A stretch of DNA of 64,000 nt. It comes from a virus. Below the pieces are notes generated by a model. It worked only from the letters and a program-made list of their open reading frames with translations, ran no database searches and had not been told where the DNA came from. Shown here one piece after another: positions 9,470 through 56,332 of the stretch. The position numbers were made by a program, and so were the translations under genes. Numbering within the stretch: position 1 is the first letter of the stretch; the number at the start of each line of letters is the position of its first letter. The DNA lies in the IMG/VR virus record IMGVR_UViG_3300042324_001267; one strand, 5' to 3'.

Positions 9470-9486
9470 CATAACTATTTATTAAT

Positions 9487-9906
9487 ATGAAGTTAGATTT
9501 ATTAAAAAAATTAATCAAAGAAGCAGTAAAAGAAGCGGTTCGTGAAGAATTAGCAATAGTTCTTTCTGAAGATGTAAGAACTGCCTCTAAAACTCCTATA
9601 GTACAGCATGTGACAAAGTATGCAGAACATAAACCAATAGTTGCAAAACCAGTACCTACAGGGAATCCAATTATGGATCTAATGAATGAGACAAAACATT
9701 CAATGACTCAAGGAGAATATCAAAACCTAGTAAGTGCTACATCTGATATGGTTCAAGCACCTGGATTAGGAATGAACCCAATAACAGAGAATTTCAGACA
9801 AGGTCCTGAACCGGGATTAGATATTTCACAGTTTGATTTTATGATGAGAGCAGGAGATGTGTACAAGGCATCAGTACAGAAAGATAAAGAAAGATTTGGA
9901 GCATAA
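9487..9906 (+). CDS. Hypothetical protein with LKKLIKE leader
   Basis: N-terminus MKLDLLKKLIKEAVKEAVREE. Confidence 0.65.
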   Translation: MKLDLLKKLIKEAVKEAVREELAIVLSEDVRTASKTPIVQHVTKYAEHKPIVAKPVPTGNPIMDLMNETKHSMTQGEYQNLVSATSDMVQAPGLGMNPITENFRQGPEPGLDISQFDFMMRAGDVYKASVQKDKERFGA

Positions 9907-13581: not shown

Positions 13582-16500
13582 ATGGCAGAAATAAAGTACA
13601 CAGCTAATAGAGACATACCAGGGAACATAGCAGGTGTTGAGAGATACTCTACAGAAGATACACAGTTAATCTCTTCCTTTGAGGTAAATAGTTCTTTTGA
13701 TACCAGTAAGCATGTAGTAGAACTTCACCTACTATCCCTTAGTGATGATATATTATTTAGTGAATACGATTATAGAGGTTACAAACAATTAGGAAATGCT
13801 CAATCTTCAGGACAAGAAGGAGCATCAGTACTTACTATAGACCCTATTCAAGATAGTATCTCTTTTGATTACGGTAACGGAGGAATTAAACTACTGTATC
13901 ACTTTTTAAACGACTTATTTACAGATGACACTTCTGCCGCAGAACTGTACATACAAGATATCTCACCAGATAGAACAGAGTTAAAACTTGCTTCACTAGC
14001 ATTATCTCCTACAGATTTAGAGAGGTTTACTAATGTAATAAAAAGTAAGTTAGAGAGCGAAGCTTTCTTTAACGAGTTTAGGTTAAATTTTGAAGATAAC
14101 GACCTACTTATCGGTATTAATATAGATACTCTAGATAATGGTATAGAGAAAGAAGTAACAGTAAAACTATATGAACCATTACCTTTTACTTACGGAATAA
14201 AAAGTAAGTTAAGGATAGTTGAATTAGTAGCTGATTCTGTCGCATACGAAGTACAATCTGAGGTAACACCTGAACCGGAAGTATTCCCAACTCTAAAACC
14301 TGCCAATTTCAACATAGACATACAGGATGAGAATATAATACCTACCCAGTATTTTAACTATGATGAATTATTTAGTTATCCATTAAATAATGCAAATAGT
14401 CAACTATTCTCTTTAGTTAACGAGAAAGGTGTCGATATAAGTATCGATCACACCTCTTATAAAGACTTTATACACTTCTCATCAGCTCAAGAAAGACTAC
14501 TAAACTTTAAGTATAAATTAGACTTAGTAACATCTTATTCTGCTAGCTTATCATCAATAAACAGTCAAATACCGGGTGCTCAAGGAACATTAGGTTTACA
14601 AGGAATATCAGGAAGTAGAACATATTTTGAAGGGTTAATGGAAGGAGTGTTAAATAACTTCGATCATTACGAAAGATTCTTATATTACGAATCAGGTAGT
14701 TCTAGTTGGCCAAAATCTAATACTAAGAAACCATATCAAAACCAGGTAAGTAGTACACCTCAATCAATACTTTGGTATACCAACCAAATTGCAGAAGCAA
14801 TATCGTATGACAATACCAATTATAATTCATTAATATTTTCTATACCATCTTACCTTAGAGAGGATACAAATAATGAGAATTACTTGACATTCATCCATAT
14901 GATAGGTCAGCATTTTGATAACTTATGGTTATATGCAGATGCAGTAACAGATAAGTATGATGCTGATAATAGAATGAATAAAGGAATCTCTAAAGATTTA
15001 GTTGGGGAGGCTTTAAAGAATTTTGGAGTTAAATTATATACTTCAAATAAATCTATTGAAGACTTATTCTCAAGCTTTATAGGACAGGGATACGTATCGG
15101 GAAGTGAACATATTAATTTCTATATAACAGGATCACTAACAGGATCACTAACAGGACCTAATACTCCTATAGAACCTTCTTCTTTTGATACTTATGAAAA
15201 AGAGATTCAAAAAAGAATTTACCATAACCTTTCTTATTTACTAAAAACAAAAGGTACAGAGAGAGGTCTAAGAGCACTTATAAACTGTTTCGGTATTCCT
15301 TCAGACATATTAGATATAAAACTATACGGAGGTAGAAATACAAACGAAAGACCTTTTTACGGAGACTACCAATACTATACAAGTTCTTTAGATAAAATAC
15401 GAATTGACCATACAGGTAGTATTATACCAGGTAACACATTATCAAGTCATACTTCTATAGTAAAAAGAGATAATAAGTATACAGATGATTTACATGTTAT
15501 TGAAGTAGGGTTTTCTCCTACCGATAATGTGGATAAGTATATTATATCTAAATCACTAGCAGATCCAAATCTAACTACATTTAATATAGATCAATATATA
15601 GGAAACCCAAGCAGCTTAACACTTCCAGATTACGAAGGACTTTATAAAGTAGCAGAAGACATATTAGGAGATTTATCACAATACGATGTAAGAGCTTTTG
15701 TAAGACTAATCAAATTCTTTGATAATGTAATCTTTAAAATGGTTAAGGATTTTATACCTGCTAGAACAGTAGCTGATACAGGTATAATAATTAAGCCAAA
15801 TTTACTAAATAGATCAAAAGCAAAATCTATAAAAGCATCTGTAGATACAATTACAGGATCAAATATGGATAATGCATTTACATATACATCATCTATCGAT
15901 ACTGCTTTTGCAGAAGGTTACCACGGAGATACTTTTGGATCAGTAGTTGAATACATAGCCTCTTACAAACAAATAGTAGATACCCCAGAAGGACGAAGAA
16001 TATCTTACCTTAAGGATAAAGAAGAAGCAAAGTTTGATGGAGAATTAGCAAATAGTACGATTAGAGTATCAACAGGAGAGCTTAATAGAAGTAATACATT
16101 AAAGAAAGCAATTCCGCCAAAAGTTCAATTTAATGTAAGGTTCTACGAAGGAACACCGCCAGACTTATGTACACTAACTCCAGGAGCTAACGATAGTTTT
16201 GTAGTACAGCCAGGTATTCCATATGCATTAGGTCCATTATTTGGAGGAAATGGTGTATCAGCACCACCTAATACATTATATTACTTAGGAACAACTCCTC
16301 AAGGAACACCAATACCTTCTACATACACCTTTACAGGTGCACAATATGACGAGACAATTATACATGGGTACGCTAAACTCGGTTGTGATGAAACAGTAAG
16401 ATTCCGTAATGTAACCTGTTCTCTAGGACCTGATACAGCACCAAGTTATATAGTAGCTGGAACAAGTTATGACCTTGCAAACTGGTTTACATTGAATTTA

Positions 16501-36539: not shown

Positions 36540-36560
36540 TACTATTTATTTAATATAATC

Positions 36561-36596
36561 GTTGGATAATCGAAAGAATATTCGTATATTTAGGTA
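36561..36596 (+). promoter_or_regulatory. Putative early promoter (copy 8)
   Basis: GTTGGATAATCGAAAGAATATTCGTATATTTAGGTA, same spacing as left-end copies. Confidence 0.7.
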
Positions 36597-36609: not shown

Positions 36610-37518
36610 ATGGGAGGAAACGTATTCGATAGTACAGCACCGATAAAAAAAGAGCATATTAAACCAACTCTATTAGAGTTCTTTAAGCAGTTCAAAACTA
36701 TATTTCCAAAAGCAGAACCATTCTTTAGAGAGATGAAAACTCTAGGATCTGTAGGGAAAAAAGATTACTCAGGGGATATTGACCTAGCACTTGCCGGGTC
36801 ATCCTTTGATAATGTAGAGGATTGGGGTCTAGATGAGAAACACGTTCAAGACCTATTTGTAGGGTTTAAGAAAAGAGCTAGAACATCTTCTGATGATCAG
36901 CTAATGAAAAGAGCTGTAATTGTAGCAATAGCACAAAAGATAGCAGAAGCAGATACAGAGATTATAGCAGATGTAAAAGGATCTTCTGCAGGAGCTTTAT
37001 TTCTTCTATTTCCTCAATACGATGAGAATAACGAAGTAGTAGGACAAAACGTTCAAATAGATGTAAATGTAGGAGATGTAGATTGGTTACAATTTGCATA
37101 CCACTCAGCCACTTACTCAGGAAACGTAAAAGGGTTACATAGAACACAATTACTTGTATCTTTATTCTCTCAGAAAGGATATACATTCTCTCACAATTAT
37201 GGAGTAAAGGAGAAAGAATCACAAGAGATTGTAGCAAACACACCACAACAAGCAATAGACCTTCTAAATAAGTCATATGGCTTAAATTTAGATAGAGATA
37301 CAATAGGAGATTATTTTAAATTGATAGAAGTACTAGAAGCAGGACTATCCCCACAGGATTTAAACGCTGTATATGATACTTATCTTAAGATATTAGATAG
37401 CACTAGAGCAGATATACCAGAAGATCTACAGGCTTATTGGATAAAAAATCAAGAAAGATTAGGGTTAAAAGGTAAATTCTTACCGGATAATTCAAATTTA
37501 ACACAATATAAAGTATAA
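36610..37518 (+). CDS. Pol-beta-superfamily nucleotidyltransferase
   Basis: LGSVGKKDYSGDIDL (GS..DxD) and third acid in VQIDV. Confidence 0.7.
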   Translation: MGGNVFDSTAPIKKEHIKPTLLEFFKQFKTIFPKAEPFFREMKTLGSVGKKDYSGDIDLALAGSSFDNVEDWGLDEKHVQDLFVGFKKRARTSSDDQLMKRAVIVAIAQKIAEADTEIIADVKGSSAGALFLLFPQYDENNEVVGQNVQIDVNVGDVDWLQFAYHSATYSGNVKGLHRTQLLVSLFSQKGYTFSHNYGVKEKESQEIVANTPQQAIDLLNKSYGLNLDRDTIGDYFKLIEVLEAGLSPQDLNAVYDTYLKILDSTRADIPEDLQAYWIKNQERLGLKGKFLPDNSNLTQYKV

Positions 37519-37519
37519 T

Positions 37520-40240
37520 ATGTCAGGAGTAGCAGGAGGAAATAGAATAGAAAGAGGGGATGTACATAATACATTCAACAAATACGTAGAAGAAGTTCTA
37601 AGTAAAGTACCAGGCTTCAAGAAAGCTTCTCTATCTGGATCTGTAAAAGCAGGAACAAAAGCTGACTTTGGAGACTTAGATATTATTGTTTGGTTTGAAG
37701 GAGATGATAAGAGAGAGGTTAAACAAAGACTTATCGATGCAGCTCTAGCTCTTCCACAAAACATAATTGTACCTTTTAAATCAGAAAAATATACCGGAAG
37801 AAGGTATTATAACTCAGGTGAACTAATCTCAGTACTCTATCCAATTGTAGGAAAGGAAGATCAATATATTCAGGTTGATAATATTATATCTCTTACAGAA
37901 GAAGAACATGCCTTTAAAGGATCATTCTTAGACCTACCAGCTGAAAAGCAAGGACTGTTAATAGGGCTAGCAAAAGTAATTTTACTTGAGCAAGACCCAC
38001 AAGATGTATTCAGAAGAATGGGTATTTCAAATGTACCTAATCTAGAAAAAGGTGAAGAGTTTGAATTTAACCTATCATCGGTAAAACTATCTTTAAGAAA
38101 AGTAAAACTAGAAAACTTTAGAGAAATAGCAAGAGAAGAGGTATGGTCAACAACAGCTTGGGGTACTATTAAGATACTATTTAAAGGATTTAATATAGAC
38201 GGTTCTTTCGAAGACCTATTAGATGATGTTGCTAAAAAACTTACAAATGCTAGATCTAAAAATAGAATAGCAGGTATTTTTAAATCAATGGTATCTGTTA
38301 AATCAGGAGAAGTTGGAACAGCTAAAGGAAAAGGTAAAGAAGATGCATTAGAAAAAGTAGCACAAACACTTGCAGAAGCATTGGATGATGGATCCGAAGT
38401 AGTAGCTTTATATGCTGGAGGATTCAAACCACCACACCTTGCTCACTTTGAAAATGCCAAATTTCTATCTACTAAAGCAGACAAAATTGTAATATTTATC
38501 GGACCTAAGATCAGAGAAGGTGTAAAAATTACAGCAGAACAATCAAAAGCTATTTGGGAAATCTATGCAAAATACATAAACGTACCAATGGAGATTGTAA
38601 TCAGTAAAGTAACTCCAATATTAGATACATATGAATGGATTGATGCAAATCAAGACAAAGTAACAAGCATTATTACAGGAGCTATGGCTGATGAAATGGG
38701 TAAATTCTCTGGAATAGAAAAGAGAAAAGAAAAAGGTGAGTATAAGAATGTAGAAGTAAAAGAACTACCTGTTATTACAAATAAAGAAGACGATAAATTC
38801 TCAGCAACTGATATTAGAAAGTCAGAAAAGTTCTTATTAGAAGGCAAATGGATGCCAAAAGTAGTATCAAAAGAAGATAAGCAAGCAATCCTAGATATTA
38901 TAACTCCTCAAAAAGAAGATTCAGTAGAAGATAAAATGCTAACTGCAGTAGATAACGTATTTGAAAGTTTCTTTCCAAAGAAAACTAAAAAAGAAGTAAT
39001 ACAAGAAGGGTCAGCAGGAACACCTATACAGCCATCAGGAGCTATTCCATCAAAGGATAGAGAAAACTTAATACACCTCTTTAGCCAACTAAAATCAACT
39101 ATTAATTCAGAAAAGTATACAGTAGTATTTGAGCAAGATAGAATAGGAGTATACATAAAAACGTATGCAGATGTAAGCTTTGACCAAACACCTCAACAAA
39201 AAACACTACCAGAAGGAGCAGAGCAAGAAAAATTCGACTACACACCTTACATAGGATCTCTTTTAGAGTATATGTTAGATGAGAAGATGAATATTACACC
39301 GTTACCGGAAGTAAAAATCAGATATGACGAAGAACAAGCAAACGACTTCTTCGGTAAAACAGCTTACTATGATCCAAATAAGCAAGAAGTAGTATTATAT
39401 GTAATGAATAGACATCCAAAAGATGTCTGTAGATCATTCTCTCATGAAATGATTCACCATATGCAAAATATGGAAGGAAGACTTGAAGGATTAGCAGCTA
39501 CTACTAATACAAATGAAGACGATTACTTACAGGAAATAGAAAAAGAAGCTTACCTAAAGGGTAATATTACATTTAGAAACTGGGAAGACGGATTAAAAAG
39601 TAATAAAGAGGTTATGGCAGAAGGAAGATACGATAAAATTAGTAATCAAGCATCATCAGACTTGTTTAGAGGCTGGAAAGAAGCATTTAATGCAGGAGAA
39701 AAGAGTATAGGATTTGAAGAAACTTATTCAAATGGTGATGTAGAATTCGACGTAGAAGGTACTTTAGTACTAACACCAGGAACCGGTAAAATGGAAGTCT
39801 TAGAAAGTACAGGAGCAGGCTTTGACGAAGATGGAGATTTTATTATAGTAGATATCGCTATTGATCCAGAACTATTACCAGGCTTTTGGGAAGAGATTTC
39901 AATGACTTTAAAAGATCTTTTCAGACATGAAATTGAACACCTAACACATAATAAAGGAGGAGTATCTACAAATCCTTCTAAAATAATGAGAGGTGATTTA
40001 GCAAAAAGAGATAAGATAAGAGCAGGAGAAAAGCCAATAGGAGATTATTTTAAACTTAAAAAAGAAATAGATGCAAACCTACAGGGAATGTATTTTAGAG
40101 CTAAAAAAGAAAAAAGACCATTTGCAGATGTTGTAAATAGTTACTTAGATGCTCAAGATATTACACCTCAAGAAAGAGAGGAAATACTTACATTATGGCG
40201 TAACAGACTTCCTGCATTAGGATTAAAACAAACATTATAA
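37520..40240 (+). CDS. Multidomain protein: Pol-beta NTase + HxxH nucleotidyltransferase + two HExxH zincin-like domains
   Basis: SGSV..FGDLDII/IQVD; AGGFKPPHLAH...SATDIR; SHEMIHH; RHEIEH. Confidence 0.7.
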   Translation: MSGVAGGNRIERGDVHNTFNKYVEEVLSKVPGFKKASLSGSVKAGTKADFGDLDIIVWFEGDDKREVKQRLIDAALALPQNIIVPFKSEKYTGRRYYNSGELISVLYPIVGKEDQYIQVDNIISLTEEEHAFKGSFLDLPAEKQGLLIGLAKVILLEQDPQDVFRRMGISNVPNLEKGEEFEFNLSSVKLSLRKVKLENFREIAREEVWSTTAWGTIKILFKGFNIDGSFEDLLDDVAKKLTNARSKNRIAGIFKSMVSVKSGEVGTAKGKGKEDALEKVAQTLAEALDDGSEVVALYAGGFKPPHLAHFENAKFLSTKADKIVIFIGPKIREGVKITAEQSKAIWEIYAKYINVPMEIVISKVTPILDTYEWIDANQDKVTSIITGAMADEMGKFSGIEKRKEKGEYKNVEVKELPVITNKEDDKFSATDIRKSEKFLLEGKWMPKVVSKEDKQAILDIITPQKEDSVEDKMLTAVDNVFESFFPKKTKKEVIQEGSAGTPIQPSGAIPSKDRENLIHLFSQLKSTINSEKYTVVFEQDRIGVYIKTYADVSFDQTPQQKTLPEGAEQEKFDYTPYIGSLLEYMLDEKMNITPLPEVKIRYDEEQANDFFGKTAYYDPNKQEVVLYVMNRHPKDVCRSFSHEMIHHMQNMEGRLEGLAATTNTNEDDYLQEIEKEAYLKGNITFRNWEDGLKSNKEVMAEGRYDKISNQASSDLFRGWKEAFNAGEKSIGFEETYSNGDVEFDVEGTLVLTPGTGKMEVLESTGAGFDEDGDFIIVDIAIDPELLPGFWEEISMTLKDLFRHEIEHLTHNKGGVSTNPSKIMRGDLAKRDKIRAGEKPIGDYFKLKKEIDANLQGMYFRAKKEKRPFADVVNSYLDAQDITPQEREEILTLWRNRLPALGLKQTL

Positions 40241-40253
40241 AAATAAAAAGGTT

Positions 40254-40841
40254 ATGGGAAAATTAGCAGACTTATTACTAGAAGAATCAGACTTCATGCC
40301 TAAATATCAGATATATTGTGATATGGATGGAGTATTAACAGACTTTGAAAAGAGATTTGTTACATTATTACAACAAGAAGGTCCAAAGTACTATTCAAAA
40401 GCGACAATTGCTCAAGTAACAAGGCCTAAACACTTTGATAAACTAGAAGGAACAGAAGAGTTTTGGAAGTTTATTGATCAGTATATTGGATTAGAGTTCT
40501 GGTCAGAAATGGAATGGATGCCAAATGGTAGAGAGTTATGGAACTTTATACAACCATACGGACCAAAACTTTTAACATCTCCTTCCAGAGACAATACCTC
40601 AAGACTTGGTAAAAGATTATGGGTAAAAGAAAACCTAGTACCTGCCCCTGAAGTCTTATTTAGGTTTGGAGATGCTAAGTCGGATTTTGCAAATGAAAAT
40701 GCTATATTAATAGACGATAAGCCTTCCAACCTCGCTGCATTTTCTGCTAAAGGAGGAATAGCAATAGAGGTAAAAGACGGAGAAATACAATCGGTTATTA
40801 ATAAATTAAAACAACTTGGTTATGGGCGAGAGCTTACTTAA
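40254..40841 (+). CDS. HAD-family 5'(3')-nucleotidase-like phosphatase
   Basis: CDMDGVLTDF, LTSP, GK..W, LIDD. Confidence 0.8.
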   Translation: MGKLADLLLEESDFMPKYQIYCDMDGVLTDFEKRFVTLLQQEGPKYYSKATIAQVTRPKHFDKLEGTEEFWKFIDQYIGLEFWSEMEWMPNGRELWNFIQPYGPKLLTSPSRDNTSRLGKRLWVKENLVPAPEVLFRFGDAKSDFANENAILIDDKPSNLAAFSAKGGIAIEVKDGEIQSVINKLKQLGYGRELT

Positions 40842-41448: not shown

Positions 41449-41586
41449 ATGGCAAAAGCAGCACAATCTTCCGTTAAAATAGAGAGACCTAAAGTATCTA
41501 GACCTGGAGTTCATGCAAAATCTAAAACTTCAAAATTGAAGAGTTCTAAGAACTATAAAAAACTTTACAATGGACAAGGGAAGTAG
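41449..41586 (+). CDS. 45-aa highly basic microprotein (absent from ORF track)
   Basis: MAKAAQSSVKIERPKVSRPGVHAKSKTSKLKSSKNYKKLYNGQGK* after a TATTTAT motif. Confidence 0.65.
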   Translation: MAKAAQSSVKIERPKVSRPGVHAKSKTSKLKSSKNYKKLYNGQGK

Positions 41587-41809
41587 TAAAAAATTAAAAC
41601 AATTACTACAAGAAGCAGATAACCCTCAAGCAGGTAAAGCAGCACCTTATGGTTCAGGATATGCAAAGGTAAAACAAGCAATTCATGAACTTGTAAAAGA
41701 AGTTCTTTCAGAAAAAGTAAAAGGCGTTGACGGTAAAGCTTGTTGGAAGGGATACAGGTATGCTGGTACTAAAGATGGAAAAGACATCTGTGTAAAAATT
41801 ACAAAATAA
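41570..41809 (+). CDS. Leader-bearing small protein with CWKGY..C module
   Basis: LKQLLQE|A, VLSE|K, then CWKGYRYAGTKDGKDICV. Confidence 0.65.
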   Translation: MDKGSSKKLKQLLQEADNPQAGKAAPYGSGYAKVKQAIHELVKEVLSEKVKGVDGKACWKGYRYAGTKDGKDICVKITK

Positions 41810-43225: not shown

Positions 43226-44788
43226 ATGAAGAAATTAGTAAGAATAGTAGAAGCAGGAGAAAAGACAGCATTTATCCAAACAGCTAGAGGAGAAAAGAAG
43301 ACGATCGAATATAAAAAAGACGATGAACTTACAGGTTTGAAAGATAATCAGGATATTGCAAAAATTGATACTGCAGATGGTAAGAGAATAAAAGAAGAAG
43401 TACGAAAATATACTGCTCAAGAATCAGCAGCTGTAGGAAAAGCAGTAGCTAAATCTCTTGTAAAAGTTCTTAGAGCTCAAGGAGATGAAATCTCAAAACT
43501 AAGACTTACAGGAATAGGAGTTGATAGATTTAATATCCACGTTGAATATGGAAATGAAAAAGGAGTAGATACTTTTAAATTTGACCTAAACCCACAAGGT
43601 ACTGCTATCATATTAGACTTAGGAAACGAACCATTAGAGCTAGTAGACTTCGTGATAACACAAGGTAATACTGTTTCTCTACCTACTCCTGAGTTAGAAG
43701 ATAAACTAGGTGATGCAATGAAAAAGTATGTGGGAGAACCTACAGATGCTGAATATGATAATATGGCAGCAATGCAAGAGCCGACAGATCCTTCTCAATT
43801 TGCAAAAGAATTAAACGAAGATGATTGGAAACAATCAGACGACGAATCTACAATGGCAAAAGCACAGTTAAAATCTATTCAATCCAATGCAAGTAAGTTG
43901 ATGAATATAATAGGAGATAACGAGCAATTAGATGCATGGGTTCAAGCCAAGCTAACAAAAGCAGAAGATTATTTAGACTCAGCAGCAGGATACCTAGAAT
44001 CAGAAGAAGATGAAGAGGGTCATCAACCTGTAGCACTTGCAATAGCTTTAAATGAAAAGAAAGCTACATATTGCGGAAGATGTGGACATACCCATGTTAA
44101 GGGTACACCTTGTCCAAGACCTTTTAAAAATGAAGCATTAGATGCAGTTGGAAAAGAGGATGACGATATTAATAATGATGGAAAAGTCGATAAGACTGAT
44201 AAATACTTAAAAAACAGAAGAAATACTATCTCTAAAAAGATAACTAAAGAAGAACTGAGAGAATTAATGCTTGAAGCATATATCGAAGTTCTTAAAGAAG
44301 AAGAAGGAGCAGTATTAGAGACATCTACAGATGAAATACTAGGAAAATTTCCTACAGTAAAGAAAGCAATAACATCTCTATTTACAAAAGAATATCCAGA
44401 ATTTGTAACAGATATAAGATGGGTAGCACCAAAACCTTCCACATTTGCAGTTGATCTTAAAAACGGTCAATCATTTAACTTAAAATGGATGGGTAAAGGA
44501 TTTGAAGCACAAATAGAAGGTAAAAAATACTACTTAGATACTTTACAAGACTATCAACAAGCTTTAGATAAGATAAACGATATACTTAAGAACGGACCAA
44601 TCACACAAGGTGAAGAACCAGGTGGAGAAGAATTCGGAGCAGATCCAGCAGCACCAGCAGGTGGAGGAGGAGGAGATTTTCCAGGTGGAGAAGCTGGAGG
44701 AGAGCCAGCAGCTGAATTTGGAGCAGAAGAAGCACCAGCAGGGGAAGAAGAAGCAGGAGCAGAACCAGAAACACCAGAAGCACTTTAA
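43226..44788 (+). CDS. Modular hypothetical protein (putative head polyprotein)
   Basis: Modules separated by LNE/IKE/VLE; CGRCGHTH..C; [12 protein letters not shown] Ca-binding-like loop. Confidence 0.7.
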
Positions 44789-50258: not shown

Positions 50259-51113
50259 ATGCGTATTAAACACAGTAAGTATAAAAACACAGGCTTAATA
50301 TTTGAACTATTAGTAAAGCAAATAGCAGCGGATACCTTATCTAAAAGAGATTCCCCGGCATTGACAGTACTAAGAAAATTTTATACAGGAAACACAACAC
50401 TAGTAAGAGAGTTTAAATTATACGATTTTGTACTAAAAAATAAAGGCATTGGCCCTAAAAAAGCAGAATCAATACTAAGCACCATTGTAGAGATTTCTAG
50501 AAAACTAGATGCAAAATCTCTTAGTAAGCAAAAATATGAGCTTATAAAAGAACTTAAGAGTCATTACGATTTAGAGGAGTTCTTTTCTATTAAGGTAGAA
50601 GCATATAAGCCTCTAGCAGCTTTATATTGTTTAATGGAAGCACAAAATGCAGCAGAACTTGTAGACCTAGATGTATTTGTTGACAATAAAACTACAATAC
50701 TTGAGCACTTAACTCAAAGTAAAACAGCAGCCGGTCAAGTAAAAAATGCTTTAATTGAAGAGTATTCTAAATATGATAAAGATTTAAGACTTTTAACATA
50801 TAAAATATTACTAGAGAAATTTAATCACCAATATAAAGATTTACTTCCAGAACAGAAAAACATCTTGAAGGAATTTATAGTATCAGTTAACTCTTCTACA
50901 AGACTAAGAAACGTAGTAAATGAAGAAATGACTAAATTACAAGTAGAGATTTCTAAATTAAAAAAGAATATTACTGATAAAGTAGTAAAAATTAAATTAG
51001 AAGAGATTCAAAAAGTAATTATTCCTATAAAAAATACACAAAAAGTAGATGATAATCATTTAGTTTCATTAATGCAGTACTATGAATTAGTAAATGAATT
51101 AAGAAATCTATGA
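50259..51113 (+). CDS. Helical head-module hypothetical protein
   Basis: Between portal and protease. Confidence 0.65.
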   Translation: MRIKHSKYKNTGLIFELLVKQIAADTLSKRDSPALTVLRKFYTGNTTLVREFKLYDFVLKNKGIGPKKAESILSTIVEISRKLDAKSLSKQKYELIKELKSHYDLEEFFSIKVEAYKPLAALYCLMEAQNAAELVDLDVFVDNKTTILEHLTQSKTAAGQVKNALIEEYSKYDKDLRLLTYKILLEKFNHQYKDLLPEQKNILKEFIVSVNSSTRLRNVVNEEMTKLQVEISKLKKNITDKVVKIKLEEIQKVIIPIKNTQKVDDNHLVSLMQYYELVNELRNL

Positions 51114-52315: not shown

Positions 52316-52894
52316 ATGAACAATTTATTAGTAAATGTAACTCCTTTCAAAGGAATGCTTACCGAATCAAAGGCTAAACCCGGAGTATTCGAAGTAACAG
52401 GCATTATGCAGAGAGCAGGAGCTAAGAATCAAAACGGAAGAATCTACAAAAGAGAAATTCTTGAAGAAGAAGTAAAAAATTATGTAGAGAATTTTGTTAA
52501 GATAGGAAATGCATACGGAGAATTAGATCATCCAGAATCAGCAATTGTCTCTTTAAAAAACGCATCACACGTTGTAAAAGACTTATGGTGGGATGGAGAT
52601 GACTTGATGGGTAAAGTTGAATTACTAAATACACCCTCAGGAAATATCGTAAAAGAAATATTAAGAGGAGGACATACAATTGGAATCTCTTCAAGAGGAA
52701 CAGGATCAGTATCACAAACCAATGAAGGAACTTTAATGGTACAGGATGATTTTGAATTAGTATGTTGGGATTTCGTTTCTAATCCATCAACACAAGGAGC
52801 TTTTATGAATCCAATTTCACTAAACGAAGGAAAACAATCAGTAGGAAAATACGATAGATTAGATTCTATTATTAACAATATATTAAGAGCATAA
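52316..52894 (+). CDS. Prohead protease (T4 gp21-like)
   Basis: NQNGRIY, GELDHP, ASH, GISSRGTG, DFVSNPS. Confidence 0.95.
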   Translation: MNNLLVNVTPFKGMLTESKAKPGVFEVTGIMQRAGAKNQNGRIYKREILEEEVKNYVENFVKIGNAYGELDHPESAIVSLKNASHVVKDLWWDGDDLMGKVELLNTPSGNIVKEILRGGHTIGISSRGTGSVSQTNEGTLMVQDDFELVCWDFVSNPSTQGAFMNPISLNEGKQSVGKYDRLDSIINNILRA

Positions 52895-54706: not shown

Positions 54707-56332
54707 ATGGAATTAAATCAATTATTCGAAGGGGCGAACAACTATAAGACTTTACAAGCTGATGCAGCTCGTTTGTCTGGTAAATGGGCCAAATCAGGTT
54801 TGTTAGAAGGAATTTCTAACGAAATCGAAAGAAACAACATGGCTATGATTCTTGAGAATCAAGCAAAACAAATCGTATCAGAAAATACTACAGGTACAGG
54901 TGCAATGGGTACTTCTACAGGTGGTGCTGAGCAATGGGCTGGAGTAGCTTTACCATTAGTACGTAAAGTATTCGCTCAAATCGCAGCTAAAGATTTCGTT
55001 TCTGTACAACCAATGAACTTACCTTCAGGACTTGTATTTTACTTAGACTTTAAATACGGTACAAACGCAGTAGGTAGAACAGACGGGGATAACCTTTACG
55101 GTAACGTTTCTACAGCTAACTCTAAAATTGGAGTAGATGTTGATCCATCAGGAGGTTTATACGGAGCAGGTCAATTTGGTTACTCAATCAACTCTGCATC
55201 TTCTGCAGGAGTTTACAGTACTACTGGATCAGCAGTATCTTCTTCTATCGCATACCAAGATGGAATAAATCCTTCAAACTATTTTACATTAGCATTCGGA
55301 ACAGGAAGTATCGCAGGATTCGATCCTAAAGGTGTTAGAGCATTCAGACTTTACTCTGCTTCAGTAGATGTAACTTCTAACCCAGAACTTACTTTCTTAT
55401 CTTCTTCTGCAGCAGGAGAATATGTGAAATTCGTAGGATTAGCATCAGGAATCACTACAGGATCTTTCACAGCTACTGTAAAATACCAAATGCAACCAAC
55501 TGACAGATCAAGAGGTGACTTCGAAGACGGAGGAACTAACCCAGCAGGAAACAACAACGGAACTATTAAAATTCCTGAAATCAACGTATCATTAGCTTCT
55601 GAAGCTATCGTTGCTAAAACAAGAAAATTAAAAGCACAATGGACTCCAGAGTTCGCACAAGATCTTAACTCTTACCATTCAATTGATGCTGAAGCAGAAT
55701 TAACTTCATTATTATCAGAGTACATCTCTATGGAGATTGACTTAGAGTTAATGGATATGTTAATCCAAGATGCAGCTACAACTGAAAGATGGTCAGCAGT
55801 TAACAACAAAAACTGGAACCCATCAACTAATGCTTGGGAAACAGGTACATTCAATGCAGGAACTAGTTTCTACAACACTCAAGGTCAATGGTTCGGAACT
55901 TTAGGTACTAAAGTACAAAAAGTATCTAACAAAATTCACCAAAAAACTTTAAGAGGTGGAGCTAACTTCTTAGTATGTTCTCCAACTGTAGCTACAATCT
56001 TAGAATCAATTCCAGGATATGCAGCAGATACAAACGGTGACAAAATGGACTTTGCAATGGGAGTTCAGAAAGTAGGTAACTTGAATTCTCGTTTCAGAGT
56101 TTACAAAAACCCTTACATGACTGAAAACGTAATCTTATTAGGTTACAGAGGATCTCAATTCTTGGAAACTGGTGCAGTTTATGCTCCATATATTCCATTA
56201 ATCATGACTCCATTAGTGTACAATCCAGAAACCTTTACACCAGTAAAAGGTATCATGACTCGTTACGCTAAGAAAATGATCAGACCAGAATTCTACGGTA
56301 AAATCTTCGTTAGCGATATCGCTACTGTATAA
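54707..56332 (+). CDS. Major capsid protein (T4 gp23-like)
   Basis: ILENQ, VQPMNLPSGLVF, AKTRKLKAQWT.E.AQDL..H..DAE.EL, YAPYIPL, P.KGIMTRY. Confidence 0.95.
   Translation: MELNQLFEGANNYKTLQADAARLSGKWAKSGLLEGISNEIERNNMAMILENQAKQIVSENTTGTGAMGTSTGGAEQWAGVALPLVRKVFAQIAAKDFVSVQPMNLPSGLVFYLDFKYGTNAVGRTDGDNLYGNVSTANSKIGVDVDPSGGLYGAGQFGYSINSASSAGVYSTTGSAVSSSIAYQDGINPSNYFTLAFGTGSIAGFDPKGVRAFRLYSASVDVTSNPELTFLSSSAAGEYVKFVGLASGITTGSFTATVKYQMQPTDRSRGDFEDGGTNPAGNNNGTIKIPEINVSLASEAIVAKTRKLKAQWTPEFAQDLNSYHSIDAEAELTSLLSEYISMEIDLELMDMLIQDAATTERWSAVNNKNWNPSTNAWETGTFNAGTSFYNTQGQWFGTLGTKVQKVSNKIHQKTLRGGANFLVCSPTVATILESIPGYAADTNGDKMDFAMGVQKVGNLNSRFRVYKNPYMTENVILLGYRGSQFLETGAVYAPYIPLIMTPLVYNPETFTPVKGIMTRYAKKMIRPEFYGKIFVSDIATV

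Follow-up and report, generated by a model that had tools for sequence, protein, structure and literature searches.

Why should a phage with a T4-type head string several unrelated enzyme-like domains together in one open reading frame (ORF), with a hydrophobic residue, an arbitrary residue and a glutamate at every boundary between them? The question is raised by one gene in a stretch of 64,000 nucleotides of viral DNA (IMG/VR record IMGVR_UViG_3300042324_001267; this whole stretch is called the window below), whose DNA is about 88% identical to that of Flavobacterium phage vB_FspM_immuto, a 160-kb myovirus of the genus Immutovirus. The gene product of 906 residues consists of five modules, A to E, in this order, and its homologue in immuto (83% identity) bears a single annotation, nicotinamide mononucleotide (NMN) adenylyltransferase. 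Comparison with relatives and structural modelling suggest that this one gene probably yields several separate proteins. The best reading, which we regard as rather probable, is that of a polyprotein of capsid cargo which the phage processes with its own S77 prohead protease.

A preliminary description of the window, made from its letters and ORF translations, had already read the gene as a polyprotein in which a Pol-beta nucleotidyltransferase (NTase), an HxxH nucleotidyltransferase, a small domain and two zincins follow one another, separated by the protease-like sites TLAE/A, VIQE/G, TLPE/G and VMAE/G (a slash marks a known or proposed cut). All four sites turned up where they had been placed, the extent of the ORF and its 906 residues are as described, and so is every listed motif: GSVKAG..DLDI in residues 39-55, GGFKPPHLAH at 300-309, SATDIR at 427-432, HEMIH at 642-646 and HEIEH at 803-807. 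The domain order likewise holds and can be refined to folded units at residues 1-285, 293-463, 508-548, 570-693 and 702-906. As to the expectation of about five enzymes, five folded modules are present, but the likelier count is three to four enzymes, with one small accessory unit, because C is always followed by D in the homologues and looks non-enzymatic.

The structural model separates these modules clearly. An AlphaFold2 model of the whole protein, built on an alignment of 63 homologues, has a mean predicted local distance difference test score (pLDDT) of 83 and a predicted template modelling score (pTM) of 0.40, and therefore represents folded units without a fixed mutual arrangement. Values of pLDDT below 50 occur solely at residues 286-292, 464-474, 476-478, 480-507, 549-569 and 694-701, 80 residues in all, and the four proposed sites lie within the segments 286-292, 480-507, 549-569 and 694-701; the suggestion that they might fall in disordered linkers is thus borne out, and none is buried in a folded domain. 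The protein contains 18 copies of [LIVM]xE and eight of the narrower [LIVMFA]xE[GAS], and five of these eight, all four sites included, are found in the 80 residues of low pLDDT (binomial P = 2.4e-4).

The first two modules resemble nucleotidyltransferases. Module A is well folded over residues 1-285 of the model, and its Foldseek matches are Pol lambda, Pol beta and Thermus PolX (E about 1e-6, probability 1.0, about 218 columns, template modelling scores by target 0.4-0.5). The Pfam match to NTP_transf_2 is weak, and homologues match DNA_pol_B_palm, Polbeta and MTPAP-like. With the G-S...D-x-D signature of the Pol-beta palm also present, we read module A from its modelled fold as a PolX-like nucleotidyltransferase, and presumably it acts as one. 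The folded core of module B (residues 293-463) shows alternating strands and helices in the model, with PPHLAH at 304-309. Pfam CTP_transf_like aligns with residues 297-434 at E 0.043 (14.5 bits against a cut-off of 21), and is matched by 10 of 46 homologues, with a best E of 2e-10. An HxxH and an ISxTxxR-like motif in a modelled Rossmann-like fold identify module B as an NMNAT-like nucleotidyltransferase of the HIGH-motif type, with a presumed role to match. The architecture of NadR comprises a helix-turn-helix (HTH), an NMNAT and a ribosylnicotinamide kinase part; neither the HTH nor the kinase was found in the 906-residue protein, and the NMNAT-like part accounts for 170 of its residues.

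The remaining modules are less easily named. The folded portion of module C (508-548) is a small alpha/beta unit in the model. In module D the residues H642, E643, H646, E674 and E676 are invariant, and in the whole-protein model a helix, three strands, the HExxH helix and a Glu-bearing helix follow one another; the published description of the zincin-like core (PMC5512222) lists a helix at the N-terminus, a sheet of three strands, the helix with HExxH and a further helix that bears a Glu. The nearest named families of D are M78, DUF6782 and M91, and these are found in relatives only. Module E, modelled alone, reaches a pLDDT of 93 and a pTM of 0.89. D and E share one succession of elements: a helix at the N-terminus, a small sheet, the helix with HExxH and then another helix in which acidic residues are conserved. 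The best structural match of E is weak (Z 4.9) and involves the VgrG2b metallopeptidase domain and M1 aminopeptidase cores, a Foldseek search of the PDB with the model of E gave no match at E <= 1e-3, and its matches in BFVD are uncharacterised phage proteins. A feature search recovered unnamed viral clusters only, plus weak leads to M78, LPD23 and SprT, and neither D nor E matched a named polyvalent-protein Pfam family above threshold. For the whole protein a search of PHROGs produced no match, and PDB sequence searches with the whole protein and with profiles of D and E returned nothing usable.

The sites between the modules are conserved to a degree not seen in the residues around them. In 112 collinear homologues (45-94% identity) P3 and P1 (residues counted back from the cut) are near-invariant. 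At the A-B junction L284 and E286 are present in 112/112. At the B-C junction P3 (residue 494) is V or I in 109 homologues and E496 is found in all of them, while at the C-D junction P3 (563) is L, I or M in 109/112, E565 is kept in 108/112 and P1' varies among G, N, A and Q. The D-E junction has M699 at P3 in 109 homologues, E701 in 111 and G702 in all 112. The linker residues that flank P3 and P1 change freely, and the copies of the motif within domains, at 441, 656, 746 and 762, are unconserved. The codons of P3, P1 and P1' differ at silent positions among related contigs, hence it is the protein, not a DNA linker, that is under selection, and the possibility that the junctions are fixed DNA recombination linkers is ruled out.

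Two further observations concern individual junctions. The P3 residue of the D-E junction is a conserved Met (ATG; 39611-39619), and several metagenomic proteins of 208 residues have been called from there as MAE/GRYD...; on short contigs such calls may be artefacts, or they may reflect a genuine internal start. On either side of the C-D site (39170-39250, residues about 551-578) a short motif is repeated, SFDQTPQQK before and KFDYTPYIG after it, and the repeat is clearer in the relative P0125 (FDYTPYQ...E/S...FDYTPHI). By its sequence it could be the remnant of a duplication or a recognition element.

If the modules are released as separate proteins, their order should matter little, and homologues had been expected to shuffle domains exactly at the sites. 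This is what we found: modules are reordered, inserted, fused and split there. An exhaustive profile-free search yielded 2949 clusters at 50% identity, and the five modules were mapped on the best 149 of these 2949. Among these distant homologues other orders occur, such as B-E-D, A at the C-terminus, and duplicated D or B, and modules are also set apart by long unrelated stretches that include NT5C, ART-PolyVal, Maf, DUF6934 and further peptidase-like domains. D and E are the commonest modules among the 149 representatives; polyproteins that lack D or E (for example P0180, P0195 and P0197) retain the same junctions. Alignments of module E always begin at its first residue, G702, whatever lies upstream, and in 73 of 75 distant homologues the three residues directly before it are [LIVMF]-x-E. 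Where a module is internal, [LIVMF]xE marks its start in 6 of 6 copies of A, 90 of 90 of B, 17 of 19 of C, 103 of 119 of D and 75 of 76 of E, a share of 87-100%, compared with 22-34% at random positions, and the density of the motif is 58.8 per 1000 residues at junctions versus 2.7 in module interiors. BLAST breakpoints near the sites are enriched just 2.5-3.5-fold, a modest value because the ends of high-scoring segment pairs are imprecise. The B-C junction also takes up insertions, namely an extra module of 170 residues in P0004-type relatives and a different insert on contig L009. Micro-modules recur between cleavage-type sites in many polyproteins (P0128, P0199, P0201, P0232, P0245), among them AAPYGSGY, DPFGLNQFARE and the zinc-knuckle-like CHKCGHDN; the AAPYGSGY piece is also found in a neighbouring ORF of the window (41570-41809), and 43226-44788 is another region of the window for micro-modules.

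The borders of the gene itself tell the same story. N-terminal copies of module A start M/SGxAGG and internal copies ..LNE/SGSAGG. The gene directly upstream, called Z here, is an internal module in P0180, P0195, P0197 and P0260, where it is preceded by [LI]-x-E/GGNVF and followed by LNE/SGSAGG, the start of module A. The 5'-nucleotidase gene directly downstream is of the NT5C type; in at least 14 of the representative homologues, as well as on contig L021, it is fused to the C-terminal side of module E. A gene boundary in the window is therefore a junction site elsewhere, with Met in place of the P1 Glu, as is expected if the mature proteins start right after Glu.

A protease of suitable specificity is encoded close by. 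The window contains a T4-type large terminase (TerL), a portal protein, an S77 protease and a gp23-type capsid protein (Pfam Portal_T4, Gp23, Terminase_6N), and T4 gp21, the prototype of this protease, cleaves after L/I-X-E (PMC9026906). The same kind of motif is found on the head proteins of the phage: MLTE/S and SLNE/G at the termini of the protease, LFE/G, LLE/G, ILE/N and VSE/N in the propeptide of the capsid protein, and IAE/A, IQE/G and LTE/N at the starts of acidic scaffold-like and core-like proteins. S77 accompanies the polyprotein locus in the relatives searched (L002, L023 and L025 not covered). Relatives again show the succession primase, exonuclease, polyprotein, then TerL, portal and S77, and distant members keep the primase-exonuclease-polyprotein order. 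The relatives show some peculiarities around this block. On L003 (13611-16449), the contig with P0180, two overlapping frames, 13611-15287 and 15241-16449, both match the large terminase, and a frameshift, an error in the assembly or a split gene could account for this; on L026, L027 and L028 a SegE-type GIY-YIG homing endonuclease gene lies directly upstream of the primase-exonuclease-polyprotein block, and on L027 a Zeta_toxin/AAA_33 kinase-like gene stands in place of gene Z. The positions of the features in the window are compiled in Table 1.

Table 1. Positions of the polyprotein gene, its modules and proposed junctions, and of related features in the window.
Feature	Position	Strand	Basis or remark
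Polyprotein ORF, modules A-B-C-D-E	37520..40240	+	906 residues
Module A, PolX-like Pol-beta nucleotidyltransferase (putative), residues 1-286	37520..38377	+	Foldseek, weak Pfam NTP_transf_2
Module B, HIGH-motif cytidylyl/adenylyltransferase-like, NMNAT-like, residues 287-496	38378..39007	+	H-x-x-H, SATDIR, weak CTP_transf_like
Module C, small alpha/beta unit, residues 497-565	39008..39214	+	Model; D always next
Module D, HEMIH, zincin-like, residues 566-701	39215..39622	+	Motif, topology
Module E, HEIEH, zincin-like fold, residues 702-906	39623..40240	+	Motif, model
Junction 1, T-L-A-E/A (E286/A287, proposed cut point at nucleotide ~38377)	38366..38380	+	Conservation, pLDDT <50
Junction 2, V-I-Q-E/G (E496/G497, proposed cut point at nucleotide ~39007)	38996..39010	+	Conservation, disordered stretch, insertion hotspot
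Junction 3, T-L-P-E/G (E565/G566, proposed cut point at nucleotide ~39214)	39203..39217	+	Conservation, disordered stretch
Junction 4, V-M-A-E/G (E701/G702, proposed cut point at nucleotide ~39622)	39611..39625	+	Conservation, pLDDT <50
Upstream gene Z, 302 residues, MGGNVF...	36610..37518	+	Internal polyprotein module elsewhere
Downstream NT5C-type 5'-nucleotidase gene	40254..40841	+	Pfam NT5C 7e-7; leader MGKLADLLLEE/S
Two promoter-like elements before the Z-polyprotein-NT5C operon	36542..36592	+	CTATTTAT at 36542, CGTATATTTA at 36583; motif matches
Prohead protease, Peptidase_S77 (T4 gp21 type)	52316..52894	+	Pfam PF03420, E 2.5e-35
Major capsid protein, gp23 family, ~60-residue N-terminal propeptide	54707..56332	+	Pfam PF07068 from residue 75

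A link to the capsid is indicated by the N-termini of relatives. Stand-alone E proteins (213-214 residues, many of them on contigs of 16-80 kb) carry leaders such as MKYIKLYEDFSINE/GRYD, and of the 64 polyproteins with module B in first place, 43 have a leader of 14-15 residues such as MNQLTKFLVDGILNE/. In T4 the products of ipII and ipIII start MKTYQEFIAE/A, and these ten N-terminal residues are a capsid-targeting sequence that is removed by gp21; the 14-residue leader of stand-alone module E resembles it in sequence. When Asp takes the place of the P1 Glu in T4, processing is blocked while targeting is retained (PMC9026906). Other stand-alone copies of E have neither a leader nor LxE (MSNNKYN...), so that LxE is dispensable for the fold. 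The protein of the window starts MSGVAGGNRIERGD (MSGVAGG...), and the absence of an N-terminal leader that had been noted for it is real, although relatives have leaders; in homologues that begin with module A the leader is absent in 59/59. One may speculate that the modelled helix before the A-B site (residues 268-289), which is placed like the leader-like helices of relatives, serves as an internal address.

Leaders of this type are not confined to the family. In the window, unrelated ORFs starting at 9487, 33292, 33878, 40254, 41570, 41811, 42738, 43226 and 51110 begin with basic amphipathic leaders ending in I/L-x-E, examples of which are MKRSQLVKLIKEE, MKKSELKRIIQEE, MKKSQLKKIIKEV, MKRSEVLKAIQEV and MKLLQLLKEA; the ORF at 51110 sits within the head module. 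From the distribution of these leaders, the polyprotein gene would seem to lie within a block of cargo genes whose products are targeted to the capsid. Leader-tagged stand-alone E genes also occur in very large phage-like contigs, L025 (527 kb) and L023/L024, other large contigs with such genes encode HSP70, DnaJ, GrpE and T4 RNA ligase, and small stand-alone CTP_transf_like genes lie near the E genes of large contigs.

The time of expression bears on the same issue. Z, the polyprotein gene and NT5C are tightly packed, with gaps of 1-13 nucleotides, behind two promoter-like elements. CGTATATTTA is also found in the early cassette array and ahead of the scaffold gene. Nine of the 13 copies of CTATTTAT stand shortly before genes, among them structural genes such as that of the portal protein (48351); these nine, at 9475, 33150, 36542, 41414, 43176, 45774, 48351, 50233 and 58050, lie 12-142 nucleotides before the starts. 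The overall count of CTATTTAT in the window is not enriched (13 versus 8.9 expected), and its placement alone is notable. By this placement it is a candidate late-promoter core, in style like TATAAATA of T4. The preliminary description had cautioned that the polyprotein gene lies behind an early-type promoter. The early-type element is indeed present, but the caveat is weakened because CTATTTAT of the structural genes precedes the operon as well.

Under the reading that we favour, the ORF would encode a beads-on-a-string precursor of five independently folding modules, which the S77 prohead protease would cut after E286, E496, E565 and E701, most likely within the prohead core, by the precedent of T4. 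The fragments would be carried in the capsid and pass into the next host together with the DNA. Since cleavage would free the modules, the genes of the locus could fuse, split and reshuffle at the sites without loss of function, and the wide architectural diversity of the family would have its cause in this separation. That the prohead protease matures the protein, as had been proposed, is supported by the comparative and structural evidence, from which we infer the cleavage itself, the identity of the protease, and packaging and ejection.

Several points weigh against this reading. Neither the protein nor any of its A-first relatives has a leader, which makes the route into the prohead the main gap in the packaging model. 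The gene lies beside primase and exonuclease, behind an element also used in the early cassette array. The short hydrophobic-x-Glu motif is frequent by chance, hence our observation rests on the placement and the conservation of its copies; LxE could instead be part of the conserved N-terminus of each module, and 16 of 119 internal copies of D are without a nearby site. Our literature search found neither a paper on such polyproteins nor proteomics of immuto-like phages. Finally, the two zincin-like modules of the protein itself could do the cutting.

This last point leads to the view that we are dealing with a self-processing polyvalent protein, in which D and/or E cut the same junctions in cis or in trans and the prohead protease is not involved. 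Such a role has been proposed for metallopeptidases (MPTases) by Iyer et al. 2017 (PMC5512222), and it would fit the presence of two modules in which the His, Glu and His of HExxH are invariant and a helix with Glu follows, their position as the commonest modules of the family, and the presence of ART-PolyVal in relatives; the leader of stand-alone E could then be a zincin propeptide. We nevertheless consider it unlikely, because Leu/Ile at P3 and Glu at P1 are the documented specificity of S77/gp21 and the same motif is found on the phage's capsid protein, protease and core proteins, because the junctions persist in polyproteins without D or E, and because D and E match no known zincin family with confidence. 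Alternatively, the protein might not be cut at all and might act as a multi-domain enzyme, a scaffolded complex of nucleotide metabolism, in which hydrophobic-x-Glu is a linker, a docking or folding element, or a remnant of joining. Fusions of nucleotide enzymes are common, the gene stands amid genes of replication and nucleotide metabolism, and the missing leader agrees with such a view. It is difficult to reconcile, however, with linkers in which a few residues are near-invariant and the remainder variable, with the occurrence of the same modules as genes of their own, in which Met replaces Glu, with a module order free enough to include B-E-D, C-terminal A and duplicated D or B, and with modules that lack a fixed arrangement at a pTM of 0.40; a remnant of joining in the form of a fixed DNA recombination linker is contradicted by the variation at silent sites. 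An uncut enzyme thus appears improbable to us.

Cleavage by S77 and transport in the capsid need not go together. The protease might cut the precursor in the cytoplasm late in infection, and the pieces might act in the producing cell, neither packaged nor injected. According to a preprint (PMC12991175), the prohead protease of T4 is able to cut a host protein of the cytoplasm, a CD-NTase, at an exposed loop, and a precursor without an N-terminal targeting leader, in an operon behind an early-type promoter element, would be compatible with this course of events. On the other hand, relatives possess leaders like capsid-targeting sequences, leaders with I/L-x-E at their end are found on neighbouring genes of the block, and there is no obvious use for replication-type enzymes that are released late in the producing cell, so that we think this course very unlikely. 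A cargo polyprotein processed by S77 therefore stays our preferred explanation.

This concept extends what is known of T4 internal proteins and of polyvalent proteins. With IPI, IPII, IPIII and Alt of T4 the present system has in common a T4-type head module, an S77 protease, and L/I-x-E followed by a small residue. The T4 internal proteins are unrelated cargo that shares only a short leader, and relatives of the 906-residue protein bear such leaders. T4 cargo proteins, in contrast, consist of a single module with one N-terminal leader each, whereas here several unrelated enzymes are chained with internal sites; the 906-residue copy has no leader, and its processing and packaging are what we infer here. 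Polyvalent proteins (PMC5512222) are alike in that many disparate domains are joined in one phage polypeptide with zincin-like HExxH hubs, and their Pol-beta NTase and ART-PolyVal domains also occur in the present family. They differ in two respects: the work on them proposes processing by MPTases and describes no conserved motif at the junctions, whereas here the junctions carry the motif of a prohead protease, and their Pol-beta module is of the minimal firmicute type, whereas module A is PolX-like. In the giant phages phiKZ, 201phi2-1 and SPN3US many head proteins are cut after Glu at short motifs, some of them at several positions, by a protease related to gp21 (PMC9026906). These substrates are mostly structural and inner-body proteins that lose propeptides, and they have not been described as shuffled enzyme chains. 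The polyproteins of RNA viruses are comparable in that a viral protease divides the product of a single ORF, at short conserved sites, into separate functional proteins. The likeness is an analogy only, since the protease family, the type of genome and the purpose differ, the latter being capsid cargo here and not economy of genome expression.

If our interpretation is true, T4-type phages encode true polyproteins that are diced by the head protease, which goes beyond the labelling of individual proteins as capsid cargo. Annotations that name a precursor of 906 residues after one fifth of its length would have to be corrected, and a rule drawn from sequence (hydrophobic-x-Glu, a disordered linker, a phage with S77) could be used to predict injected proteins in metagenomes. 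Phage immuto is in culture, so that the prediction is open to direct test. More widely, and with slightly less than even confidence, we propose that immuto-like phages and many uncultured aquatic T4-type phages maintain a hypervariable locus with prohead-protease sites as its universal connectors, a system to which the about 2949 clusters would belong, and from which enzymes such as PolX-like polymerases, NMNAT-like transferases, 5'-nucleotidases, ADP-ribosyltransferases and zincins would be loaded, diced and injected as a toolkit for the first minutes of infection. Dicing by the head protease would explain how a large repertoire of cargo can be freely reshuffled, and a packaged PolX-like polymerase and packaged NMNAT-like enzymes would be candidates for early tools of counter-defence or repair.

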